Below, one piece after another: positions 7,869 to 48,027 of a stretch of 64,000 nt of DNA; positions within the stretch are counted from its first letter, which is position 1; each line of letters starts with the position of its first letter. The stretch comes from an uncultured Gammaproteobacteria bacterium (GTDB lineage Bacteria > Pseudomonadota > Gammaproteobacteria > Steroidobacterales > Rariloculaceae). The notes under the pieces were generated by a model. It was not told the DNA's origin. It searched no databases and was given only the letters and a program-made list of their open reading frames with translations. The position numbers and the translations under genes are program-made. The stretch is from the NCBI GenBank assembly GCA_963702105.1, contig OY969712.1, positions 5,309,378 to 5,373,377 of the forward strand, in the 5' to 3' direction.

Positions 7869-8216
7869 TTACTTGACGCCGAGCTTGTCGAGCGTCGCCT
7901 TGTCGATTCGGCCGTTCGCCTTCAGGCCGTTGTCCGTTTGGAATTTCTTGAGGGCCTCGCGCGTAGTCGGGCCGATCTGTCCGTCTACCTTGAGGCTGGC
8001 GCCGTGCTGGTTCAGCGCTCGCTGGACGGCCTCTACACGCGCCGAACCGTGCTGCTTGCGCGCCAGCGTGGTCGCGTGGTGGGCGTTCTCGACCGGCTTG
8101 TTGCCGCCGGCCGCGGACGCCCCGCTTCCTCCCTGTGCCCATGCGCCGCCGGAGAAGCCGGCGACCAGGGCCAATGCGGACGCCACGGAAACCAACCCAC
8201 GTCTCTTGATGATCAT
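7869..8216 (-). CDS. Secreted peptidoglycan-binding (PG_binding_1) domain protein
   Basis: 115-aa ORF. Signal peptide LVSVASALALVAGFSGGAWA. PGBD pattern VEAVQRALNQHGASLKVDGQIGPTTREALKKFQTDNGLKANGRIDKATL. Confidence 0.8.
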   Translation of the reverse strand: MIIKRRGLVSVASALALVAGFSGGAWAQGGSGASAAGGNKPVENAHHATTLARKQHGSARVEAVQRALNQHGASLKVDGQIGPTTREALKKFQTDNGLKANGRIDKATLDKLGVK

Positions 8217-32649: not shown

Positions 32650-35600
32650 CTAGAACGTGAGCCTCACGCCGGCGCGGAACCTCCGGCCCAGCGTGTCGAA
32701 GAATACGGGGTTTGTCGGGTAGAAGTTGCCGCCGGGCGCGACGGGCGGAGCCTTGTCGAGCAGGTTGTCGATTGCCCAGAACACCTGCAGCTGGTTGTTC
32801 TCGGTCCGGGGCTTGATGTCGTACGAGCCCGACCAGTCCAGATACGTGCGGCTCGGGACGCTGTTGTCGGTAATCGAGTTCGGCAGCAGATTCGTCGCCG
32901 CGCCCGCGGGACTGTCGAAGTAGAGCGCGTTGAGCTTGCCCGAGCCGATGTAGCGCGCCTCGAGTGTCGTCGTGAAGCGCGGTCTCGAGTAGGTCGCGAA
33001 CACGGTCCCTTGCCAGTCCGGCGAGGTGTTGAAGCCGCCGAAAGACGCGACCGGGCCGCTCTGGCCGTGGAAGTTCTGCGCAGGATTGCCGAGCCCCGTG
33101 TCTACGATGAGGTCGTAGAGGTAGCTCGAGATGACGCGGAAGTTCAGGTTGTCGTTCCCGCTCAGCGGCACCCCGTATCGGGCCTCGAAGTCGATGCCGC
33201 GCGTGAGGAAGGAGCCGATGTTGATCGAGCTCGAGTCGACCGAAACGATGTCGGACGTGCCCGCACCGACGATCGCGTCGCATGCGCGGGCGCCGCCGGC
33301 ATAGCACGCGTCGACGAGCTGCTGAGCGCTGAGGCCGCCGAGGCCGCCCACCGTAATCGCGTCCTTGATCTCGATCTGATACCAGTCGGCCGAAAACTGG
33401 AACCGGTCGAACGTCAGCACCGTGCCGAAGCTGGACGTATCCGCCTTTTCCGGCTTCAAGTCCGGGTTGCCGCCCGCGATGCTCGTATAGGACTCGGGCG
33501 CGTTGTTGTTCCACGGATTGTTGATGCCGGCCGGGAAGGAGCCCGGCACGCCGACCGTCGAGGTTCGCGGCAGGAAGAGCTCGCGGAAGCCCGCCGCGCG
33601 GACGTCGCGCGAACGCGTGGCGCGGAAGCGGAGCCAGCCGAGCGGATCGTAGACCACCGAGGCCTTCCAGCTCGGGAAGTCGTGCGTCTTCGTCTCGCTG
33701 CCGGGCGCGTCGCTCGTCGCCTGGTTGCGGGTCTCGCGCAGCGCGAAGTCCGTTTGGACCTTCTTCGCAATAGGCACGCCGACTTCGCCGTAGACCTCGG
33801 CGACGTTGATCTTGCCGCCTCGGTCGAGTCCCCACGTCAGGAAGTAATCGTTGTACCAGGGCTGGTTGGCGAGATCGTGAGTGGCCTCGTTGCGGTCGTT
33901 GCGCCATTCGAAGCCGAAGGCGCCGGAAATCGGACCCGCGCCCCAGCCCTTGGCCAGATCGGAGCGAAAGTTCGCGCCGACAACGTCCTGGCGGTAGTTG
34001 CCGTCCTCCTTGAGGGTGCGGAACGCATAGTCGAGCGCTGCAGGGTCGGCGTTCTTAACCCCGAAGAAGTCGAGCGGCACACAGCCCGCCGCGAGGGGGT
34101 TGTAGGCAGGCCCTGGCAGGGTCGCGCGACAGACGATCGGGCTCGCGGGATCGGCGGGATCCGCGTGCACGGCGTCGAGCGCCCAGCCGAAGTAGTTGTA
34201 GGTCACGGGTCTGACGGACGGCGGCAACAGGCCGCCGACGACGTTGTGGAACAGACGCTGTTGGTAGTCGCTGCGGCCGTGCTCGTAGTACGCGTCGTAG
34301 TTCCACTTATCCGTGAGGTCGCCTTGGACGGAACGTCACGAACCGAAGCACGTCCGACTGGGTCGTGTTGTCGGCCGAGAGGACGTCCGGCGCGAAGATG
34401 CGCGCGAAGATGCCGCCCGCCGGCAGCTGCGCCTGCTCCGCAGGCGTGAGATACGCGTTGTCGGGCGGGATGACGACTGCGATGGGGCCCAGAGCGCCGT
34501 TTGCCGGGTAGTTCGCCGACTCGCTGTGGGCGTTCGCGAGCTCGAACGATAACTTCAGCGAATCGCTGACGTTGTAGTCCACGTGGCCGAGCACCGAGTA
34601 CCTCTTGGTGTCGGGCCGGATATTCGAGAGGTCGTAGGCGAGCAGGGAGCCGTCGCCGCCGATGCGAGAGAAAGCGCCCCCGAACCGGCCGGGGTCGTAG
34701 GGCGAGAGCTGCGTGCCGTCCGCGTTGAACGTCAGCGGCGCCCCTCCGAAGGGCGTAATGATGCCGTTCTCCGAAGTCGGCAGCTTGGCGTCGGGTGCGA
34801 CGACGTAGTTCGGCAGGCCGTTGCCGACGCCGGCCGGGTTGTTGAAGTCCGGGTTCGTGCCTACGGCCCAGGCGTCCTTGCACCAGTCCCGCGTCTTGGA
34901 GCAGGGCCCGATGCCGGCCTGGTGCTGGTATTCCCCGCCGACGACAAAGTGAATTCGGTCGTTGTCGAAGCCCTTGCCGTAGGCGACGGACACGTGACGA
35001 TCGCTGCCGTCGCTCTGGCCCGTCTCGCCGTAATCGAGTTGCGCTTTGACGCCGTCCAGCGTCTTGTTGAGGATCACGTTGACGACGCCGGCGATCGCAT
35101 CGGAGCCGTAGGCGGCCGAGGCGCCGCCCGTCACGATCTCGGTCCGACCGACGAGCATCGACGGAATCAGCGTGAGGTCGACCGCCCCGCCCTCCGTATT
35201 GGGCACGACGCGCTTCGTATCCACGAGCGTCAGCGTGCGCGTGCCGAAGAAGGGATTGAGCCCACGCAGGTTCGCGAGCTGCGCGCCGACATTGAAGTTC
35301 CCGATGCCGACGTTGGTCTCCGTGAAGAAAGCGGTGTTCTGAGGCATTTGCCGCAGCACGTCGCCGACGTTGACGATGCCGAGGTTCTGGATCTGGCTCG
35401 AGTCCATGACCGACAGCGGCTGCGGCGACTCGAAGCCGCTGCGACCGATGCGCGTGCCGGTCACGGTGATCTCTTCGAGCTGTTGGCGGTTTCCCGACGC
35501 CTGCGCGGGCTGAGCCGGGCCCGCGTTCTGTGCCTGCGCCTGTCGTTGGGCCTGTCCCTGCGCCTGTGTCTGGGATGGCCCTTGCGCTTGAGCGTTTGCC

Positions 35601-35668
35601 GTCCCGATTCCGCCGGCCACGAGCGCCAGTGTCGGGAATAGGAAGTTCGCATACCTCGGAAGGTTCAT
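32650..35668 (-). pseudogene. TonB-dependent outer-membrane receptor split by a single frameshift
   Basis: N-terminal fragment 34307..35668: signal peptide, Gln/Ala-rich linker, plug EEITVTGTRIGRS and GGASAAYGSDAIAGVVNVI. The C-terminal fragment frame is open from 34335 down to 32650 and ends in the TBDR terminus FRAGVRLTF. At the junction, VLRFVTFR in frame 0 is followed by QGDLTDKWNYDAYYEHGRSDYQQ in frame +1 around 34326..34335. Confidence 0.85.
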
Positions 35669-36013
35669 GTCTCCCCCTTCGCGGCGTTCGCCGCGTGGGC
35701 GGTTTGCGCCACATCCGTGTATGCGCCGAGCCGAAGTCCCTACGAAGGCCGCGAATTCCAGTCGCGGCAAAGATACGTTGGCACTTTCCTCGGCTCCCGA
35801 CAAGGGGGTCGCCGTTGCCTGTTAGCAACATTACGGGCTCGGCGGCCTCGAGGGGCGGACCTCGACCGGAGGCCGGGCTCTCATGCCGCGGCGCGTGCGC
35901 CCGGCGTTTCTCCTGCACCGGCGGCTCTCGAAGCGGCGATTTGGCCGGTGTCCGTTCGTCGAGTACGATGACGGGCCTACCCGGGCGCCCTCTCGAGGAG
36001 CGGAGGTTTTCGG

Positions 36014-39028: not shown

Positions 39029-39493
39029 TTAGCGCCGCATTCTAAGTATCGCGCCGCCGAAGAAGCCTTCGACCGTATCGAGGTCGATGATGAGCGGGAC
39101 GCCTTTTCGCTCTTTGTCCAGGCTCCGCTCCACTTCGGGCGAGTGCTCGTAGACGTGCCGGCGGACCGCATCGCTGTTGTCCACGCGGCCGCGGCCGCGA
39201 AACGACATAAAGCCGCGCTGGTCCGGGTTCAGATTGCCGTAGATCAGGGAAATGACCGGCCGCGCCTGAACGGCCTTGAGGATCCCGCTTTCGGGATTGC
39301 GTACCCAGATCGCGAGCTGGTCATCGCTGTAGGCCTGCGTGCTGCCGCGAAAGGAGAGGGCGGGCTCGCCCGCGTCGTTGACGTAGGCAACGCTGATGGG
39401 CCGTCTCTCCGCAGCGGCGGTATCGACGGCCCGCTTCATCTCGGGCGTCAGCTTCAGGTCCGTCAGGACGGGCGGTTGTTGTTGTGCGGTCAT
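39029..39493 (-). CDS. Pyridoxamine 5'-phosphate oxidase-like (FMN/F420 split-barrel) family protein
   Basis: 154-aa ORF. SD ggaggag. Pattern PISVAYVNDAGEPALSFRGS, LAIWVRN and MSFRGRGRV typical of PNPOx-like small proteins. Confidence 0.65.
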   Translation of the reverse strand: MTAQQQPPVLTDLKLTPEMKRAVDTAAAERRPISVAYVNDAGEPALSFRGSTQAYSDDQLAIWVRNPESGILKAVQARPVISLIYGNLNPDQRGFMSFRGRGRVDNSDAVRRHVYEHSPEVERSLDKERKGVPLIIDLDTVEGFFGGAILRMRR

Positions 39494-39744
39494 GGCGTCT
39501 CCTCCTTCCCCGAACGCTCAGTCTAGCAGTTACTCTGCTCCGGCTCGCCGGCCGCAGGCGGCCGGGGCCGTTTTGGGCTCGGGCGTCAGCGCATTGGGCG
39601 GCGGGCCGGCGCCGCCGGAGCGTGCCAGAGGCGTCCGAGGCCGAGTTTTTCGACGCGGGAGATGCACTTACACGGGAACTTCGTATATCCTGCGGCCGTT
39701 TTGTGCTCCAGGGATCTCGGAGATGCTTCGCCTAGGTCAAACCA

Positions 39745-41022
39745 GTGAATTCCCCCAGGCCTGACTTGATGGATCTCGCACCGCTACCCGAATCCGACGA
39801 TTCGGAGCATGCCGGCAGCGCCGCGCTGCCGAAACCGAGCATCTTCGACAAGTGCGATGCGTACACCCGGGCCGACGAGACGAAGGCCAAGGGCATCTAT
39901 CCCTATTTCCGGCTCATCGAGACGGGGCAAGATACCGAGGTCACGGTAGACGGCCGCAAGATGCTCATGCTCGGCTCCAACTCCTATCTGGAGCTCACGA
40001 CGCATCCGAAGGTCAAAGAGCGCGCCGTCGAAGCCGTGCTCCAATTCGGCACCGGCTGCGCGGGCTCCCGGTTCCTCAACGGCACGCTGCCGCTCCATGT
40101 GGAGCTCGAGAAGCGCCTCGCCGAGTTCGTGGGTAAGCCCGCCGCGCTGCTGTACACCACGGGCTACCAGACGAACACGGGGGTCATCTCGTGCCTCGTC
40201 CAGCGCGGCGAGTACGTGCTCTCCGACAAGCTGAATCACGCGTGCATCGTGGAAGGCGGGTTGCTCTCGCCCGGCACCATGATCCGGTACGACCATGGCG
40301 ACATGGTCGATCTCGAGCGGCAGCTCGCGGCGCTGCCCGCCGAAGGCGGCAAGCTCATCGTTTCGGACGGCGTGTTTTCGATGGAGGGGAAAATCTGCAA
40401 GCTCCCCGAAATCACTCGGCTTGCACGCAAGTACGGCGCCCAGGTCATGCTGGACGACGCGCATTCGATCGGTGTGCTCGGGCCGGGCGGCGCCGGGACG
40501 GCCGCACACTTCGGCCTCACGGACGAAGTGGACCTGATCATGGGGACGTTTTCGAAGTCGCTGGCCGCGATCGGCGGCTTCATCGCCTCCTCGGAGCGGG
40601 TCATCAATTACCTCAAGCACCATTCCCGCCCTTTTATCTTCTCCGCGTCCGCGGCCCCGGCGAACGTCGCCGCGGCCCTTGCAGCCCTGGACGTCATCCG
40701 CGACGAGCCGGAGCGCATGGAGCGGCTATGGGAGAACACGCGGTTCATGAAGCAGGGGTTGGACGCGCTCGGCTTCGACACGGCCTCCTCCGAAACTCCG
40801 ATCATCCCCATCGTCGTCGGCGATCCCGAGCGCTGCTTCCGCATGTGGCGCTGGTTGCACGATGCAGGCATTTTCGTCAATCCCGTCGTCCCGCCCGCCG
40901 TGCCGCCGCGCCGGTCGCTCGTGCGCCTCTCGCTGACGGCGGGCCATACGCGGCAGCAGCTGAGCTGGGCGCTCGAGCAGCTCGCCGTCGCTGGGCGCGA
41001 GTTCGGGCTCATCGGCCGATAG
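39745..41022 (+). CDS. Alpha-oxoamine synthase, serine palmitoyltransferase-like (Spt-like)
   Basis: 425-aa ORF (GTG 39745 or ATG 39769). Motifs YPYFRLIE, GSRFLNGT (SPT-type rather than BioF/KBL type), DKLNHACIVEG, DDAHSIG, PLP-lysine GTFSKS, RPFIFSASAAP, ERLWENT and VNPVVPPAVPP. Confidence 0.82.
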   Translation: MNSPRPDLMDLAPLPESDDSEHAGSAALPKPSIFDKCDAYTRADETKAKGIYPYFRLIETGQDTEVTVDGRKMLMLGSNSYLELTTHPKVKERAVEAVLQFGTGCAGSRFLNGTLPLHVELEKRLAEFVGKPAALLYTTGYQTNTGVISCLVQRGEYVLSDKLNHACIVEGGLLSPGTMIRYDHGDMVDLERQLAALPAEGGKLIVSDGVFSMEGKICKLPEITRLARKYGAQVMLDDAHSIGVLGPGGAGTAAHFGLTDEVDLIMGTFSKSLAAIGGFIASSERVINYLKHHSRPFIFSASAAPANVAAALAALDVIRDEPERMERLWENTRFMKQGLDALGFDTASSETPIIPIVVGDPERCFRMWRWLHDAGIFVNPVVPPAVPPRRSLVRLSLTAGHTRQQLSWALEQLAVAGREFGLIGR

Positions 41023-41026
41023 GCGC

Positions 41027-42157
41027 ATGGCCGCGGCCGTAACGGTCGAGCCGGCCGATACACCGGCGAAGATCGAGGAATTCATCCGCTTCCCGTTCAC
41101 GCTCTATGCCGACTACCCGCACTGGGTGCCCCCGCTGCTCATGGAGCGGCGCGACTTTTTGAATCCGCGCAAGAATCCCGTCTACGAATACGCGCAGATC
41201 CAGCCGCTCATCGCCCGCCGAGGCGGCGCCGTCGTCGGCACGATCGCGCCGATCGAAAATAGGCGCTACAAGGAGTATCACCCGGGCGAGGCTCACGTCG
41301 GGTTCTTCGGGCTTTACGAATGCTCGCAGGACGCGGAGGCTTCGACGGCGCTGCTCGACGCCGCCGCCGACTGGCTGCGGCGGCGCGGCGCTTCCGTCAT
41401 GCGCGGCCCGACGAATTTCACGACGAACGACGTGCTCGGCCTTCTCGTCGAGGGCTTCGACGACGACCCCTCGCTCCTCATGCCTTACAACCCCCCTTAC
41501 TATGCCGAGCAGTTCGCGGCTTACGGCTTCGGAAAGGCCAAGGACCTGTACGCGCTCGAGGCCAGGGCCGAAGCGTACACGGGCCAACTGGAGCGGCTCG
41601 CAAAAGGCGTGCTCGCCAAGGGCCGCGCCACCGTGCGTCCCGTCTCGCTCTCGCGCTGGCACGAGGAGCTCGCCTTCGTGCGCGAGTGCTATAACCAAGC
41701 CTGGGCGAACAATTGGGGCTTCGTCCCGTGGACGGACCGCGAGCTCGCGGCGCTCGCCAAAGAGCTCAAGCCGCTCATCGATCCACGGCTCGCCTTCGTG
41801 GGCGAGGTGGACGGGCGCGCGGCCGCCATCTCCATCGCCGTCCCGGACGCGAACGAGGCGCTCAAGCTCGCGAACGGCCGCCTGTTTCCGCTCGGGTTGC
41901 TCAAGATCGTCTGGCGCCTCAAGGTCACCCGGTGCAAGCGGATTCGCGTCCTCGCGCTGGGCGTTCTGCCGAAGTACCGCAGGCTCGGCCTGGACGGCCT
42001 GCTCATCCACCGCACCATACAGAGCGGCCTCGCGCTCGGCTATCGGCGGGCCGAGCTGGGTTGGGTTCTCGAGGACAACGAAGCAATGCTGAGGCCGCTC
42101 GAGCACATCGCTGCAGAGCGCACCAAGGTTTATCGGGTTTACGACCGGGCGCTCTAG
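41027..42157 (+). CDS. GNAT-fold N-acyltransferase of unknown specificity (candidate bacterial ceramide synthase-like)
   Basis: 376-aa ORF starting 4 nt after the spt-like stop. C-terminal GNAT motif A region VLALGVLPKYRRLGLDGLLI, then GWVLEDNEAM. Confidence 0.65.
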   Translation: MAAAVTVEPADTPAKIEEFIRFPFTLYADYPHWVPPLLMERRDFLNPRKNPVYEYAQIQPLIARRGGAVVGTIAPIENRRYKEYHPGEAHVGFFGLYECSQDAEASTALLDAAADWLRRRGASVMRGPTNFTTNDVLGLLVEGFDDDPSLLMPYNPPYYAEQFAAYGFGKAKDLYALEARAEAYTGQLERLAKGVLAKGRATVRPVSLSRWHEELAFVRECYNQAWANNWGFVPWTDRELAALAKELKPLIDPRLAFVGEVDGRAAAISIAVPDANEALKLANGRLFPLGLLKIVWRLKVTRCKRIRVLALGVLPKYRRLGLDGLLIHRTIQSGLALGYRRAELGWVLEDNEAMLRPLEHIAAERTKVYRVYDRAL

Positions 42158-42161
42158 AGCC

Positions 42162-43142
42162 ATGTTGGCGCTCGTGACCGGCGGTCAGGGCTTCGTGGGC
42201 TCGCATCTGTGCGCGCGCCTCGTCGCCGAAGGGTACCGCGTGCGCGTGCTCGCGCGGCCGTCGAGCCGCCTCGACAACCTCGCGGGCCTCGGTGTCGAGG
42301 TCCTGCGCGGGGACGTGACGCAAGCCGAAGGTCTCGAGGCCGCCTTGGAGGGCTGCGACTTGGTCTTTCACGTTGCGGCCGCGCTCAAGGGTCTGCGCGA
42401 GGAGGCGCTCGTGCGCGTCAACGCCGAGGGCACGCGCAACGTCGCCGCGGCCGCGGCGGCCGCCGCGCCGGGGCCGTCGCGTTTCGTCTATGTCTCGAGC
42501 GTCGCCGCGGCGGGTCCGAGCCCGGGGGGACGCGCGCCGCTGACGGAGGACCTGCCGGCGCGGCCGTTGACGTGGTACGGCCGCAGCAAGCTCGCCGGCG
42601 AGGACGCGGTTCGGTCCACGCCCGGCCTCGAGTGGACCATCGTTCGGCCGCCTATCGTGTTCGGGCCCCGTGAGCGCGACCTGCTCGGCTATTTCCGCAT
42701 CGCGCGGCGCGGCTGGTTGCCGGTCGTCGGCCGTACGGAGCGGTTCTATTCGCTCGTTTACGCCGAAGATCTGGCCGAAGGTCTCGTGCGCGCGGCGGCC
42801 TCGCCCGCGAGCGCCGGGGAGACGTATTTCCTGGCGGGGCCCGAGGTCGTGAGCTGGGCCGAGCTCGGGCGGCTCATCGGCGCCGCGCTCGGCGTAGCCG
42901 GGCGCGTGCTGCGCGTCCCCGAGAGCGCTGCCTCGGCCGCGGGGCGCCTGGCGGATCTCGGGGCCCGCGTCCGGGGCAGGGCCTCGATCTTCAGCCATCA
43001 GAAGGTCATCGAGATGCTTGCGCCGGCATGGGTGTGCAGCCCGGCGAAGGCCGAGCGCGACTTCGGTTGGCGGGCCGCGACGCCGCTCGCGCAGGCGCTC
43101 TCGAAGACGGCGAGCTGGTACCGCGACCATGGGTGGGTTTGA
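42162..43142 (+). CDS. NAD(P)-dependent epimerase/dehydratase-type SDR reductase (candidate CerR-like)
   Basis: 326-aa ORF starting 4 nt after the previous stop. Rossmann motif LVTGGQGFVGSHL. YxxxK-type region YGRSKLAGE. Confidence 0.8.
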   Translation: MLALVTGGQGFVGSHLCARLVAEGYRVRVLARPSSRLDNLAGLGVEVLRGDVTQAEGLEAALEGCDLVFHVAAALKGLREEALVRVNAEGTRNVAAAAAAAAPGPSRFVYVSSVAAAGPSPGGRAPLTEDLPARPLTWYGRSKLAGEDAVRSTPGLEWTIVRPPIVFGPRERDLLGYFRIARRGWLPVVGRTERFYSLVYAEDLAEGLVRAAASPASAGETYFLAGPEVVSWAELGRLIGAALGVAGRVLRVPESAASAAGRLADLGARVRGRASIFSHQKVIEMLAPAWVCSPAKAERDFGWRAATPLAQALSKTASWYRDHGWV

Positions 43143-44124
43143 AGCCGCCCTGCCTTTCGGCTTGAGGCGCCCGCTCGGCGCGCTGCGCCCGCTCGACGCC
43201 CTCGTCCTCGGCTATCTGGCCGCGGCCGTCGTCCCGCTCTCGGTCGGAACGGCCCGCGGCCTGTCGGGTTGCGAGCAGGAGCTGCTTCTCGATCTCTCGG
43301 TGCTCGCCGGGCTCGGGCTGCTTATCGCGGTGTCCAGGACGTTGGGCAATGCCTTACTCGTGCTGCTGCGGCTCGCCTACGTTCCGCTGCTGTTCGCGCC
43401 GCTGTACCGGCAGACCGCGACGATCTGGCCCGTGCTGCATGCGCTCTCATTCGACGGCGCGATCACCCATGCCGAGCAGGTGCTGCTCGGCATGCAGCCG
43501 TCCGCGACGTTCGCCCAGCATGCGCCCTGGCCCTGGTTGTCCGAGCTTTTCTGCCTGGCCTACTTCGTCTATTACTTGTTCCTACCCGCGATGCTGCTCG
43601 TACCGCTGCTGACGCGCGGCTATGCGGCCGCGGAGGAGGCGCTGTTCGCCGCGACGCTCTGTTTCTGCGCGTGCCTCGTGGTGTTCTGGCTGTTCCCGAC
43701 CGTCGGGCCGCTGTACTGGTTCGCTCCGCACGCGGGCCCGGAGCTCTTCCCCGGCTACGTCTTCAACCACGCCGTCTACGCCGTCACGGCCAGGGCCGAG
43801 GTGCCGACGGGCGCGTTCCCGTCTTCGCACGTCGCGGTTGCGGTGCTGCTCACCATGCGTGCACGCCGGATCGCCCCGCGCCTGTTTCCTTTCATGCTCG
43901 CGGTGACGGCGCTCATGTGCTTCGCCGTGGTCTACCTCAAGGAGCACTACGCCCTCGACGTGCCTGCCGGCATTCTCGTCGCGCTGCTCGCCGACCGGAT
44001 CGCCTCCGGCATAGGCTTGGCTAAACAGAGGCCGCGCCGCTTCATGAACGCCGGACCTCTCGACGAGCCGCAGACGCAGCGCCGCTTCGTCTCAAATCGG
44101 GACGAATCCTGCCGCCCTCCGTAA
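43129..44124 (+). CDS. PAP2-superfamily polytopic membrane protein, Aur1/IPC-synthase-like (PAP2_3-like)
   Basis: ATG 43129 overlaps the SDR gene end by 14 nt. Multiple TM helices. Motifs FPSSHVAVAV and LKEHYALDVPAG correspond to the C2 (SxH) and C3 (HYxxDV) phosphatase/phosphotransferase motifs. Confidence 0.7.
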   Translation: MGGFEAALPFGLRRPLGALRPLDALVLGYLAAAVVPLSVGTARGLSGCEQELLLDLSVLAGLGLLIAVSRTLGNALLVLLRLAYVPLLFAPLYRQTATIWPVLHALSFDGAITHAEQVLLGMQPSATFAQHAPWPWLSELFCLAYFVYYLFLPAMLLVPLLTRGYAAAEEALFAATLCFCACLVVFWLFPTVGPLYWFAPHAGPELFPGYVFNHAVYAVTARAEVPTGAFPSSHVAVAVLLTMRARRIAPRLFPFMLAVTALMCFAVVYLKEHYALDVPAGILVALLADRIASGIGLAKQRPRRFMNAGPLDEPQTQRRFVSNRDESCRPP

Positions 44125-44354
44125 GCGTCCCGCTCGCGGATCCGCGTCTCCGCGCTTGCGCGGGAGCGCCGGACCCTGCACCTCGATCGCCCGCCTCGGC
44201 GCCTTGCACTGCCTGCTCGCCGTTCACTACGCGCTGCCGGCGGCAATCGCCGTGCCAGCGCCGGCACCTGGCGCATGCCCGTGGTAGATTGCCCCGGTCC
44301 TCGGCTCCCCGTCTCTCCCTCTCTGCGGCGTCGAGGACCGGAGAGGAGATCCGT

Positions 44355-46466
44355 ATGTCGCTTCGAGTGCCGCGACTTACGTCGGCGCGCTTCCGCGCGG
44401 CTGGGCGGCTGGCCTGTTCCTTGCTGGCCACCGCGGCGGTCCTGTTTGCATCCGGAGGCCGAGCCGTGACCCGGGACGATGCCTATGCGTGGCTCGAGGA
44501 CGTGCACGGAGCGAAGCCGCTCGCGTGGGTGGCCGCTCAGAACGAAAGGTCCGCGGCCGAGCTCAAGAGCGATCGGCGCTACGAGCCGGACTACGCAAGC
44601 GTCCTCCAGACGCTCGATGCTCCCGACCGCATTCCGCTCGGGCGCCTCCACAATGGTTGGGTCTACAACTTTTGGCAGGATGCCGAGCACCCCAAAGGAC
44701 TCTGGCGCCGCACTCGGGCGGCGGACTATGAGAACCGGGAGCCGCATTGGCAGGTGCTGCTCGACGTCGACGCGCTGGCTGCGGACGAGAAGGAAAACTG
44801 GGTCTTCGCGGGCGCCGAGTGTTCGCCACACGAAACCCGCTGCCTCATCGGCCTCTCGCGCGGCGGCGGAGACGCCGTCGTGATGCGCGAGTACGACCTC
44901 GCGGCGAAGAAGCTCGTGACGGACGGCTTCCATCTCGGCGAGGCCAAATCGGACGCCGCTTACCTCGACGACGACACCGTGCTGTTTTCGACCGATTTCG
45001 GCCCGGGGACGCTGACCGAGTCGGGCTACCCGCGCATCGTGAAGGAGTGGAAGCGGGGAACGCCGCTCGCGGCGGCCAAGACGCTTTACGAAGGCGAAGC
45101 GCAGGACGTCGGTGCCTCGGCCCTCGCGCTGCACACGCGCACGGGCGCCTACGGAATCGTCGAGCGGGCCCTGAGCTTCTTCGAGACCGACTATTTCGCC
45201 ATTGACGACCAAGGCGTGCACCTCCTCGCGCTGCCGCGCTCGGCCGCGCTCGAGGGCATGCTCGACGGCGCGCTCATCGTGAGGCTTCGCGAGGACTACG
45301 ATGCGCAGGGCGCGGAGCTGCGGAAAGGTTCGCTCGTCGCGTTCCGGAAAGACGCTGCGCCGCAGGCCATATACGTGCCGGACGCGCGGAGCACGATCGC
45401 TGCCGTCGCCGTCGGCCGCGACAAGATCTATGCGGCCGTCTATTCGAACGTCACGGGTTCCGTCCACGTTTTCGCCCCGATGGACGCGAAGGGCGGCGGC
45501 TGGACGGACGAGACCTTGAGCTTGCCCGGCGGGGGCTCGACCGACATCGTCTCCGTGGACGAGTTCGGGCCCGAGGCCCTGTTTCGTTACGAGAGCTACC
45601 TTACGCCGCCGACGCTCTATTTCGACGCCGGTGACGGCAAGCCGAGCGCCGTCAAGGCCCTGCCCGCGCGCTTCGACGCTTCGGACCTCGTGACCGAGCA
45701 GTTCGAGGCGGCGTCGAAGGACGGCACGCGCATCCCGTATTTCGTCACGCGTCCCAAGACCCTGCACGGGCCCGCGCCCACCGTGCTCTACGGCTACGGC
45801 GGCTTCGAGATTTCCATGACGCCGTCCTATTCGGCCAGCGTGGGGCGTCTCTGGCTCGAGCGCGGCGGCATTTACGTCGTCGCGAACATCCGCGGCGGCG
45901 GCGAGTTCGGCCCCGCCTGGCACGAGGCGGCGCTCAAGACGCACCGCCAACGCGCCTACGACGACTTCGAAGCCGTGGCCGAAGACCTCGAGCGCCGCGG
46001 CCTGACCACGCCGAAACAGCTCGGCATTATGGGCGGCTCCAACGGCGGCCTGCTCGTCGCCACCGTCATGACGCAGATTCCGGACGAGCTCGGTGCGGTC
46101 GTGTGCCAGGTGCCGCTCATCGACATGATCGCTTACACGCACATCGGCGCAGGCGCGAGCTGGGAGGGCGAGTACGGCGATCCCGCGGACCCGAAGATGC
46201 GGGCCTACATTCTGACCTACTCGCCCTATCAGAACGTGAAGCCGAATATCGACTATCCGCCCGTGTTCTTCGTGACGGCGACGAGCGACGACCGCGTGAC
46301 GCCGGCCCATGCCCGCAAGATGGCGGCCAAGATGGAGGCGCAGGGCCACGACGTGCTCTTTTTCGAGAACACGGACGGCGGCCACGCGGGCGCCGCCGAT
46401 CACAAGCAGGCGGCCGAGATGACCGCCCTGTCGTTCGTCTTTTTGGCCCGCAAGCTCGGGCTTTGA
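44355..46466 (+). CDS. Prolyl oligopeptidase (S9A) family serine peptidase, secreted
   Basis: ATG 44355 with SD gagaggag. Signal-like LACSLLATAAVLFA. N-terminal propeller region DAYAWLEDVHG, WVAAQN. Catalytic GIMGGSNGGLLV, and later the DDRV and GGH(A)G region. Confidence 0.9.
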   Translation: MSLRVPRLTSARFRAAGRLACSLLATAAVLFASGGRAVTRDDAYAWLEDVHGAKPLAWVAAQNERSAAELKSDRRYEPDYASVLQTLDAPDRIPLGRLHNGWVYNFWQDAEHPKGLWRRTRAADYENREPHWQVLLDVDALAADEKENWVFAGAECSPHETRCLIGLSRGGGDAVVMREYDLAAKKLVTDGFHLGEAKSDAAYLDDDTVLFSTDFGPGTLTESGYPRIVKEWKRGTPLAAAKTLYEGEAQDVGASALALHTRTGAYGIVERALSFFETDYFAIDDQGVHLLALPRSAALEGMLDGALIVRLREDYDAQGAELRKGSLVAFRKDAAPQAIYVPDARSTIAAVAVGRDKIYAAVYSNVTGSVHVFAPMDAKGGGWTDETLSLPGGGSTDIVSVDEFGPEALFRYESYLTPPTLYFDAGDGKPSAVKALPARFDASDLVTEQFEAASKDGTRIPYFVTRPKTLHGPAPTVLYGYGGFEISMTPSYSASVGRLWLERGGIYVVANIRGGGEFGPAWHEAALKTHRQRAYDDFEAVAEDLERRGLTTPKQLGIMGGSNGGLLVATVMTQIPDELGAVVCQVPLIDMIAYTHIGAGASWEGEYGDPADPKMRAYILTYSPYQNVKPNIDYPPVFFVTATSDDRVTPAHARKMAAKMEAQGHDVLFFENTDGGHAGAADHKQAAEMTALSFVFLARKLGL

Positions 46467-46888: not shown

Positions 46889-47635
46889 ATGCGAAAACCC
46901 TGCCTGGCCCTGGCCGCCTGCACGCTGCTCGCCGCGTGGGCCGCGAATTTTCCCGCCCCCGCGGGCGCCGCGAGCCCGACGGAAAAATGGGCCGCGCTCG
47001 CGAAATACCCGGACTGGAGCGGAGTCTGGGAAGTGGACTGGCGCAACGAGCGCAAGTCGCCGCCGCGCCCGCCCATGAAGCTCACGCCCAAGTGGCAGGC
47101 GAAGGCCGAGGCCTTCCGTGCCGGTCGAGCCCGAGGCGAGAACCTGCAGAGCGATGCGGCGAACTGCGTTCCCCCGGGGCTGCCGGGCATCATGACCCAG
47201 CCGTATCCGATCCAGTTCCTCTATCAGCCGAACGAGATCGTCATGCTCATCGAGACTTACATGCAGTTTCGGCAGATATGGACGGACGGCCGCGCCCACG
47301 AGGAAGACCCGGACCTCACGTTCTATGGCGATTCGATCGGCCATTGGGAGGGCGATACGCTCGTCGTGGATACCATCGGGCTGAATCCCCAGAACCTCAT
47401 CGCGCCCGGCATCGGGCACAGCGGCAAGCTGCGCGTCGTGGAGAGGATCAAGCGCGTTGACGCCGATTGGCTCGAGATCACGACGACACTGACGGACCCC
47501 AACGTCCTCGCGGAGCCCTACACGAGCACGACTTACTATCGGCACCTGGACGATAAGATCCGCGAATATATCTGCCTGGAGAACAATCACGACAGTGCCG
47601 ACGACAAGGGTCGGCCGGGCATCACCCTGGAGTAA
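46889..47635 (+). CDS. Secreted protein of unknown function, partner A of a duplicated two-gene module (paralog of 60068..60871)
   Basis: 248-aa ORF. Signal peptide LALAACTLLAAWAA. Shares with 60068..60871 the motifs PDxxGVW, C-x-P/D-x-G-x-P, GHWEGDTLVV and T-x-TDP. Confidence 0.7.
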   Translation: MRKPCLALAACTLLAAWAANFPAPAGAASPTEKWAALAKYPDWSGVWEVDWRNERKSPPRPPMKLTPKWQAKAEAFRAGRARGENLQSDAANCVPPGLPGIMTQPYPIQFLYQPNEIVMLIETYMQFRQIWTDGRAHEEDPDLTFYGDSIGHWEGDTLVVDTIGLNPQNLIAPGIGHSGKLRVVERIKRVDADWLEITTTLTDPNVLAEPYTSTTYYRHLDDKIREYICLENNHDSADDKGRPGITLE

Positions 47636-47637
47636 TC

Positions 47638-48027
47638 ATGAGCACACGGCGAATCGGCGGGCTGGCCGCGCTCGCGGTCCTCGCGGCGGCGAGCGCCCCG
47701 CTTTGGGCGCACCATTCCACAGCCGTCTTCGACATGACGAAGACCGTCGAGATCACGGGCACGGTGCAGGAGTTCCAATGGACGAACCCGCACACGTGGA
47801 CGAACGTCGCCGTCGAAGGCGGCGGCGGCGCCGAGATCTACGGGCTCGAAGGCATGAGCCCCAACTATCTCGGCCGCAACGGCTGGACCAAGCACACGCT
47901 GAAACCCGGCGACAAGATCACGTTCCAGGTGCACCCGCTCAAGGACGGCCGCAAGGGCGGCTTCATGGTCAGCGCCAAGTTCCCGGACGGCACCGTCCTC
48001 TACAACCTCCCGCGCCACGACAAATAG
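47638..48027 (+). CDS. Small secreted protein, partner B (DUF6152-like), mature N-terminus His-His
   Basis: 129-aa ORF starting 2 nt after the partner A stop, with SD ctggag. Signal peptide ends LWA, followed by HHSTAVFD. Motifs EFQWTNPHT, GDKITF and KDGRKGGF are shared with 60927..61367. Confidence 0.75.
   Translation: MSTRRIGGLAALAVLAAASAPLWAHHSTAVFDMTKTVEITGTVQEFQWTNPHTWTNVAVEGGGGAEIYGLEGMSPNYLGRNGWTKHTLKPGDKITFQVHPLKDGRKGGFMVSAKFPDGTVLYNLPRHDK

Follow-up and report, generated by a model that had tools for sequence, protein, structure and literature searches.

The PAP2_3 gene of a four-gene ceramide-type operon

The window analyzed here is a stretch of 64,000 nucleotides (contig OY969712.1, positions 5,309,378 to 5,373,377 of the forward strand) from an uncultured gammaproteobacterium of the family Rariloculaceae, whose genome is assembled as a single contig (5.45 Mb, 99.2% complete). 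It contains four closely packed genes, of which the first three resemble those of bacterial ceramide synthesis, and the fourth, hereafter gene 4, encodes a polytopic membrane protein. We consider gene 4 to be probably an inner-membrane lipid phosphotransferase of the Aur1/sphingomyelin synthase type, which would complete a pathway from serine to a phosphosphingolipid with phosphatidylethanolamine (PE) or phosphatidylglycerol (PG) as the donor. The features concerned are, in window coordinates:

39745..41022, + strand: gene 1, Spt-like alpha-oxoamine synthase, 425 aa (NF047600 570 bits; PF00155 E 4e-58)
41027..42157, + strand: gene 2, GNAT-fold acyltransferase, 376 aa, bCerS-like candidate ceramide synthase (PF00583 E 2e-6)
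42162..43142, + strand: gene 3, extended short-chain dehydrogenase/reductase (SDR), an NAD-dependent epimerase-type, CerR-like reductase, 326 aa (PF01370 E 2e-36)
43129..44124, + strand: gene 4, PAP2_3/Aur1-like polytopic membrane protein, 331 aa (PF14378 E 5e-20)
43129..43142, + strand: 14-nt overlap between the gene 4 start and the gene 3 stop, indicative of translational coupling (direct sequence reading)
43813..43830, + strand: C2-type motif AFPSSH, residues 229-234 of gene 4, with H234 as the C2 histidine (aligns to Aur1 S253/H255)
43945..43959, + strand: C3-type motif HYALD, residues 273-277 of gene 4, with H273 as putative nucleophile and D277 as putative activator (aligns to Aur1 H294/D298)

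In the window DNA, the gene 4 frame is free of stops over 43129-44124 (+) and translates to 331 aa, with a GC content at third codon positions of 0.84, like the neighboring genes of this 69% GC window. The original prediction, made from the sequence alone, had placed the gene 4 start within the last 14 nt of the reductase gene, and this is indeed what we read: the ATG at 43129 lies inside the end of gene 3, which stops with the TGA at 43140-43142. An upstream TTG at 43018 was considered less suitable because the N-termini of homologues (MAGSE..PFGL) align in register with MGGFEAALPFGL of the gene 4 protein. In a congener (G003, locus L101, G003:C1, about 8000-8130), a TAG interrupts the PAP2_3 frame opposite the first residues of the gene 4 protein, and the corresponding database protein begins at MPFGL (289 aa), so that conservation does not extend to the eight N-terminal residues.

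Profile searches assigned gene 4 to PAP2_3 rather than to the classical PAP2 phosphatases. PF14378 (PAP2_3) matched at 72.5 bits against a gathering threshold of 27 (E 5.3e-20; model positions 12-187 of 190, residues 120-288), whereas PF01569 (PAP2) barely reached its cut-off (27.8 vs 27.2 bits), and PF14360 (PAP2_C, the sphingomyelin synthase family) remained under its 27-bit threshold (21.5 bits, E 3.7e-4). Both motifs named in the original prediction were located, FPSSH at residues 230-234 (nt 43816-43830) and EHYALD at residues 272-277 (nt 43942-43959). Across an alignment of 197 relatives, the AFPSSH residues are each 98-99% conserved, H273 is 99% and D277 100% conserved, and H234, H273, Y274 and D277 together are found in 98-100% of sequences; other conserved positions include D109, Q123, P124, E139, Y145, P190, P194, E224, V268-Y269 and G281. 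The phosphatase C1 motif (K-x6-R-P) has no counterpart in these 197 relatives, whose outward loops contain no conserved Lys...Arg-Pro, and the Ser-Arg expected ahead of the C3 histidine is likewise absent, residues 7 and 6 before H273 being Ala and Val. Loss of the C1 Lys/Arg-Pro and the C3 Ser-Arg divides phosphodiester transferases, such as sphingomyelin synthase (SMS) and Aur1, from phosphomonoesterases.

The only solved structures matched by sequence were two Aur1 entries, on which S232/H234/H273/D277 fall at S253/H255/H294/D298, in line with the motif equivalence (SxH and HYxxD) originally suggested; in Aur1, single mutations of H255, H294 or D298 abolish inositol phosphorylceramide (IPC) synthase activity (PMC13133130). 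An AlphaFold (AF2) model of the gene 4 protein, built with 30 relatives, showed eight transmembrane (TM) helices (pLDDT 88.3, pTM 0.86), and Aur1 was its top Foldseek match (E 3e-4). VIA-align, which is independent of Foldseek, also placed Aur1 first (Z 17.8, rmsd 5.9, 281 residues, model 5-311 vs chain 16-350). The following matches, LpxE, PgpB and SMSr, reached Z 11.7-13.0, with acid phosphatases also at Z 11-13; LpxE (Z 13.0, 159 residues) and PgpB (169 residues) aligned over the core alone, the next match after Aur1 spanning residues 106-295, and SMSr (Z 11.7) aligned over 206 residues. The model thus has the eight-helix architecture of the whole Aur1 protein, beyond the six-helix PAP2 core, and Aur1 is the closest solved relative of gene 4 both by sequence and by fold.

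The resemblance to Saccharomyces cerevisiae Aur1, the catalytic subunit of IPC synthase (PDB 9ivc, 9vj3/9vj4; PMC13133130), therefore covers the PAP2_3/LPT fold, the eight TM helices, the catalytic triad with its neighboring serine, and a predicted active site on the non-cytoplasmic face. The two proteins differ in that they share only ~15% identity over the structural alignment, with a sequence match restricted to the C2-C3 region (E 0.007), that no Kei1-like partner is apparent for gene 4, and that the gene 4 family has conserved residues of its own (D109, Q123-P124, E139, E224 and K/R271); in addition, the host of gene 4 lacks an inositol-phosphate synthase, and phosphatidylinositol (PI) is probably not the donor. 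Loops on the side of the N- and C-termini carry 12 Lys+Arg, against 3 on the side with D109/Q123, AFPSSH and HYALD, and the active site is therefore predicted to face the periplasm by the positive-inside rule. This agrees with reports that CerR is periplasmic while Spt and bCerS are cytoplasmic, and a periplasmic CerR, as reported for Caulobacter crescentus, would fit a periplasm-facing next step by the gene 4 protein (PMC11087976).

The three upstream genes are spaced from one another and from gene 4 by 4, 4 and -14 nt. Gene 1 matched the serine palmitoyltransferase model NF047600 at 570 bits (cut-off 640), with the runner-up, TIGR01825, 145 bits lower at 425, and two further, more distant alpha-oxoamine synthase paralogues (35-38% identity) are encoded elsewhere in the genome. 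Gene 2, a single-copy gene, carries its GNAT match (PF00583) at the C-terminus and matched no NCBIfam model. The genes follow one another in the order in which the steps of bacterial ceramide synthesis are proposed to occur (Spt, bCerS, CerR; PMC11087976), and what appear to be the same three enzyme types are known from C. crescentus (Stankeviciute et al. 2022 and Olea-Ozuna et al. 2021, cited in PMC11087976). The window operon differs from the Caulobacter system in having no adjacent acyl carrier protein or acyl-ACP synthetase gene.

Linkage to ceramide genes across phyla

When one genome was scanned for each species, at least 580 relatives of gene 4 were recovered, and the best 80 loci, representing about ten phyla, were retained. 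Within 4.5 kb of the PAP2_3 gene, 63 of these 80 loci encode a protein homologous to Spt, GNAT or SDR of the window; two or more are present in 20 loci, and all three, in the same order, in 14. By comparison, the background in the Rariloculaceae genome itself (10 tblastn matches in 5.45 Mb) corresponds to ~2% expected per 9 kb by chance. The co-occurrence with spt-type genes on which the original prediction was to be judged is thus found, and in many phyla. The complete four-gene order was observed in Holophagaceae/Acidobacteria, Fibrobacteraceae, Gemmatimonadota, Eisenbacteria and Krumholzibacteriia, a Verrucomicrobiae locus includes all three homologues with the GNAT gene downstream on the opposite strand, and loci from Bacteroidota, Cloacimonadota and Lentisphaeria retain the GNAT and/or SDR gene beside the PAP2_3 gene. 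Many of the 80 loci have a homologue of gene 2 (25-62% identity) next to PAP2_3.

In a tree of 91 proteins, linkage to ceramide genes was found in every major clade, and the gene 4 protein shared a clade of full support with Holophagaceae and with proteins from Pseudomonadota metagenomes. The PAP2_3 genes of two loci, one labeled Streptococcaceae (L057) and one Nitrospirota (L035), nest in Bacteroidaceae/Bacteroidota clades of this tree, and these are probably mis-binned metagenome contigs rather than cases of gene transfer.

In 39 loci the PAP2_3 gene is immediately preceded by an SDR gene, and in 28 of these the PAP2_3 start codon is located -14 to +3 nt from the SDR stop; since choosing the start nearest the SDR stop biases towards short distances, we take the overlap as recurrent and not as quantified. 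The exact -14 overlap recurs in three Holophagaceae/Acidobacteria and two Bacteroidota loci, a -10 overlap in eight other loci, and three further Bacteroidaceae genomes also show overlapping SDR and PAP2_3 genes. When all open reading frames (ORFs) of 82 loci were clustered, no fifth gene (kinase, CDP-alcohol transferase or flippase) was common across phyla, and a lineage-specific set of FabD, FabA, ketoacyl synthase and ketoreductase genes was seen at some Bacteroidota loci only. At one of these, from a Sphingobacteriaceae metagenome-assembled genome (L014, 6665-12552), and at 5-10 similar Bacteroidota loci, a GNAT-PAP2_3 pair is followed by genes for a FabD-like acyltransferase, a FabA/ApeP-like dehydratase, a ketoacyl synthase and a ketoreductase, which looks like a dedicated acyl-chain synthesis set for the sphingolipid genes.

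Among 40 relatives, gene 4 was found in one congener alone (G003), which carries the entire operon (77-95% identity); in three genomes of the same order, only GNAT homologues occur. This distribution indicates that the operon is patchy among relatives and was probably acquired as a unit; the GC content of the locus shows neither an island signature nor a sign of recent transfer. Another congener, G005, encodes a second type of ceramide cluster (L102, G005:C45, 5230-8581) in the order SDR-Spt-GNAT, at 39-56% identity to the window genes and without a PAP2_3 gene. The genus therefore has two sphingolipid cassettes, each acquired independently.

Proposed reaction, head-group donor and alternative functions

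In the pathway we propose, Spt would condense serine with an acyl thioester, the bCerS-like GNAT enzyme would N-acylate the product, and the CerR-like SDR would reduce the 3-keto group to yield dihydroceramide. The PAP2_3 enzyme would then act on the periplasmic side of the inner membrane, by a two-step chemistry that we take over from the mechanism of Aur1 (PMC13133130). H273, activated by D277, would attack the phosphodiester of a glycerophospholipid, releasing diacylglycerol and leaving a phospho-head-group-enzyme intermediate, from which the ceramide C1 hydroxyl, assisted by H234, would take the phospho-head group. The expected product would be ceramide phosphoethanolamine (CPE) from PE or ceramide phosphoglycerol from PG, and not a product derived from PI. 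The diacylglycerol released could be recycled by DgkA, for which the genome holds two genes. Two other PAP2-type genes in this genome (G000:C1:726849-727728 and 1714654-1715365) each lie directly beside a dgkA gene, which suggests paired modules for lipid phosphate and diacylglycerol recycling.

Animal SMS1/2 and SMSr (a CPE synthase; PDB 8ijq/8ijr) and trypanosome TbSLS1-4 carry out the same overall chemistry: at an LPT-type His-His-Asp site, ceramide receives the phospho-head group of a glycerophospholipid, and diacylglycerol is released. SMSr and TbSLS2 make CPE, one of the two products considered here. The SMS enzymes differ from gene 4 in having six TM helices, with an additional SAM domain in SMSr; the SMSr fold match is weaker than that of Aur1, and the PF14360 score is under cut-off. 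Caulobacter, for its part, adds an anionic head group by a ceramide kinase route (CpgABC) and is not known to use a PAP2_3 enzyme for this.

The original prediction held that the head group could not be predicted from the sequence. As far as the protein sequence is concerned this stands, as the TbSLS paralogues discussed below illustrate, whereas the gene content of the genome narrows the choice. No match to myo-inositol-phosphate synthase (MIPS, PF01658) was found in this 99.2% complete, one-contig genome; models of phosphatidylinositol-phosphate (PIP) synthase scored 20-34 bits against cut-offs of 170-350, and no phosphatidylcholine synthase (pcs) exceeded its cut-off. In contrast, pgsA (178 bits, cut-off 109), pssA (116 bits, cut-off 107) and two phosphatidylserine decarboxylase (psd) genes are present, so that the available donors are PE, PG and cardiolipin. 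Since the genome lacks MIPS and the gene 4 protein is not of the type of Bacteroides thetaiotaomicron BT_1522, the phospho-head group of this organism is probably phosphoethanolamine or phosphoglycerol, and not inositol. Between the two, we infer PE to be the likelier donor, because the LPT-type enzymes SMSr and TbSLS2 make CPE from PE and because the gene 4 family keeps three acidic residues in its outward loops.

Several points weigh against a transferase role or against the choice of donor. PAP2-superfamily enzymes are mostly hydrolases, no measured activity for any member of this subfamily was found in the literature, and the roles of the GNAT and SDR proteins are assigned only from their fold class, the order of the genes and the conservation of synteny. 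Foldseek TM-scores against Aur1 are just 0.46-0.55. The position of K271, two before the C3 histidine, is Lys or Arg in 76% of the 197 relatives and could help bind a phosphomonoester. The genome also encodes three uncharacterized CDP-alcohol transferases, which leave a small chance of PI being made from imported inositol. Even SMSr is reported to function, in the absence of ceramide, as a phospholipase C specific for PE (PMC7988496), and close TbSLS paralogues make IPC, ethanolamine phosphorylceramide (EPC) or sphingomyelin, so that homology cannot give the head group (PMC11796370).

Some of these points would suit a phosphatase of the sphingolipid pathway, acting on ceramide-1-phosphate, a sphingoid-base phosphate or ceramide-phosphoglycerol-phosphate much as PgpB acts on phosphatidylglycerol phosphate. 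The superfamily consists mainly of phosphomonoesterases, PgpB, LpxE and the acid phosphatases are the next fold matches after Aur1 (Z 11-13), the basic residue at 271 lies near the C3 histidine, and the single DAGK_cat lipid kinase of the genome could in principle phosphorylate ceramide. We nevertheless regard this function as unlikely: the residues that clamp phosphate in such enzymes (C1 Lys/Arg-Pro and C3 Ser-Arg) are missing, Aur1 aligns over the whole eight-helix protein while the phosphatases align over the core only, no clade conserves a kinase or CDP-alcohol transferase beside the gene, and the only DAGK_cat gene is 2.7 Mb distant from the operon. It is more improbable still, to the point of being hardly credible, that gene 4 is a generic envelope enzyme (an undecaprenyl-diphosphate, phosphatidate or lipid A phosphatase) standing beside ceramide genes by chance. 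Such a role is hinted at by NCBIfam matches to undecaprenyl-diphosphate phosphatase for the gene 4 protein and to LpxE for some relatives, but these reach 13-28 bits against cut-offs of 177-250, the top named phosphatase equivalogue for gene 4 (NF008813, undecaprenyl-diphosphate phosphatase) scoring 13.6 bits where 229 are needed. Chance adjacency is also at odds with the synteny in 63 of 80 loci and with the restriction of the gene, within the genus, to the two genomes carrying the operon, and six other PAP2-type genes are available in this genome for housekeeping.

An IPC synthase using PI, like yeast Aur1 or BT_1522, appears very unlikely, although Aur1 is the closest solved structure, the BT_1522-type model NF052609 (phosphoinositol dihydroceramide synthase) is the top, if very weak, NCBIfam match, and the unassigned CDP-alcohol transferases of the genome show weak archaetidylinositol-phosphate-synthase-like matches. 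Against it stand the complete genome without MIPS and without a PIP synthase over cut-off, and the distance from BT_1522 itself: NF052609 gave the gene 4 protein 18.4 bits against a cut-off of 480, and ten relatives from other phyla 0-19 bits, compared to 550 bits for a true member. By BLASTP, the gene 4 protein matched a Bacteroides member of its own family at E 2e-26 and the BT_1522-type protein at E 9e-6 over the C2-C3 stretch only, and the BT_1522 type falls far outside the family in the tree, as an outgroup with a branch length of 4.9 changes per site. One Bacteroides genome encodes both types at separate loci, the BT_1522-type gene (550 bits) beside MIPS and the gene 4 family member beside an SDR gene, while four other genomes have the gene 4 family and lack the BT_1522 type. 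What BT_1522 (PMC9246714, PMC8791184) and gene 4 have in common is that both are bacterial AUR1-like PAP2_3 proteins with C2 and C3 motifs, acting, or in the case of the gene 4 family proposed to act, on dihydroceramide; they differ in genomic setting, BT_1522 belonging to an inositol operon (MIPS, PIP synthase, PgpA-like) and the gene 4 family adjoining genes of the ceramide core.

Bacteroidaceae relatives and further observations

The transferase function preferred here has a possible extension to Bacteroidaceae. Among 61 sampled species of this family, 49 (~80%) encode one copy of the gene 4 family at E <= 1e-30; as Spt is present in 60 of the 61 genomes, co-occurrence with Spt is uninformative there. 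A 2022 study of B. thetaiotaomicron found no candidate for an EPC synthase (PMC8791184), and a review from 2023 lists enzymes for phosphoinositol dihydroceramide and alpha-Gal-dihydroceramide and none for phosphoethanolamine dihydroceramide (PE-DHC), which every Bacteroides tested makes (PMC10191378). In view of its presence in about four fifths of sampled Bacteroidaceae, the PAP2_3 subfamily linked to ceramide genes, including the Bacteroidaceae members that overlap a CerR-like gene, may tentatively be put forward as the missing bacterial CPE (EPC/PE-DHC) synthase, although we hold this broader assignment to be rather less probable than a transferase function of gene 4 itself. No fused, longer version of the gene 4 protein was found when such forms were looked for, a result of little evidential weight. 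Two leads were discarded: a frame of 824 codons in a Bacteroidaceae genome is open by chance across the SDR gene and does not represent a fusion, and BT_0972 is a classical 31-kDa SDR, unlike the extended SDR encoded here.

The core pathway of bacterial ceramide synthesis was worked out only in 2021-2022. Within the literature searched, which left subscription journals mostly outside, we found no paper assigning a function to the gene 4 subfamily, and the inositol-specific BT_1522 was the only phospho-head-group enzyme of bacterial sphingolipids found assigned. New in this work are the genome content that argues against an inositol head group, the separation of the gene 4 family from BT_1522, the high prevalence of the family in Bacteroidaceae together with its overlap with a CerR-like gene, and the predicted periplasmic active site. 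With members from Gammaproteobacteria to Bacteroidaceae whose genes are physically coupled to that of the ceramide reductase, this widespread PAP2_3 subfamily constitutes a concrete and testable candidate. If the assignment is correct, a single gene family would account for the sphingolipid that is most abundant in gut Bacteroides, phosphosphingolipids would be predicted in Acidobacteriota, Gemmatimonadota, Fibrobacterota, Verrucomicrobiota and some Gammaproteobacteria, and their production could be predicted from the genomes of phyla without reports of such lipids.

The genes flanking the operon are unrelated to it and encode S46 and S9 peptidases, a DUF1223 protein and a TonB-dependent receptor. 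A promoter and terminator scan of 39300-44400 yielded nothing above shuffled sequence. Farther out in the window, at 32650-35803 (-), the reading frame of a TonB-dependent receptor is broken into two ORFs, with the Plug domain at 34307-35803 and the beta-barrel at 32650-34227, which fits a frameshift or a sequencing error, and at 46889-48027 (+) a gene without a Pfam match is followed, 2 nt on, by a DUF6152 gene.

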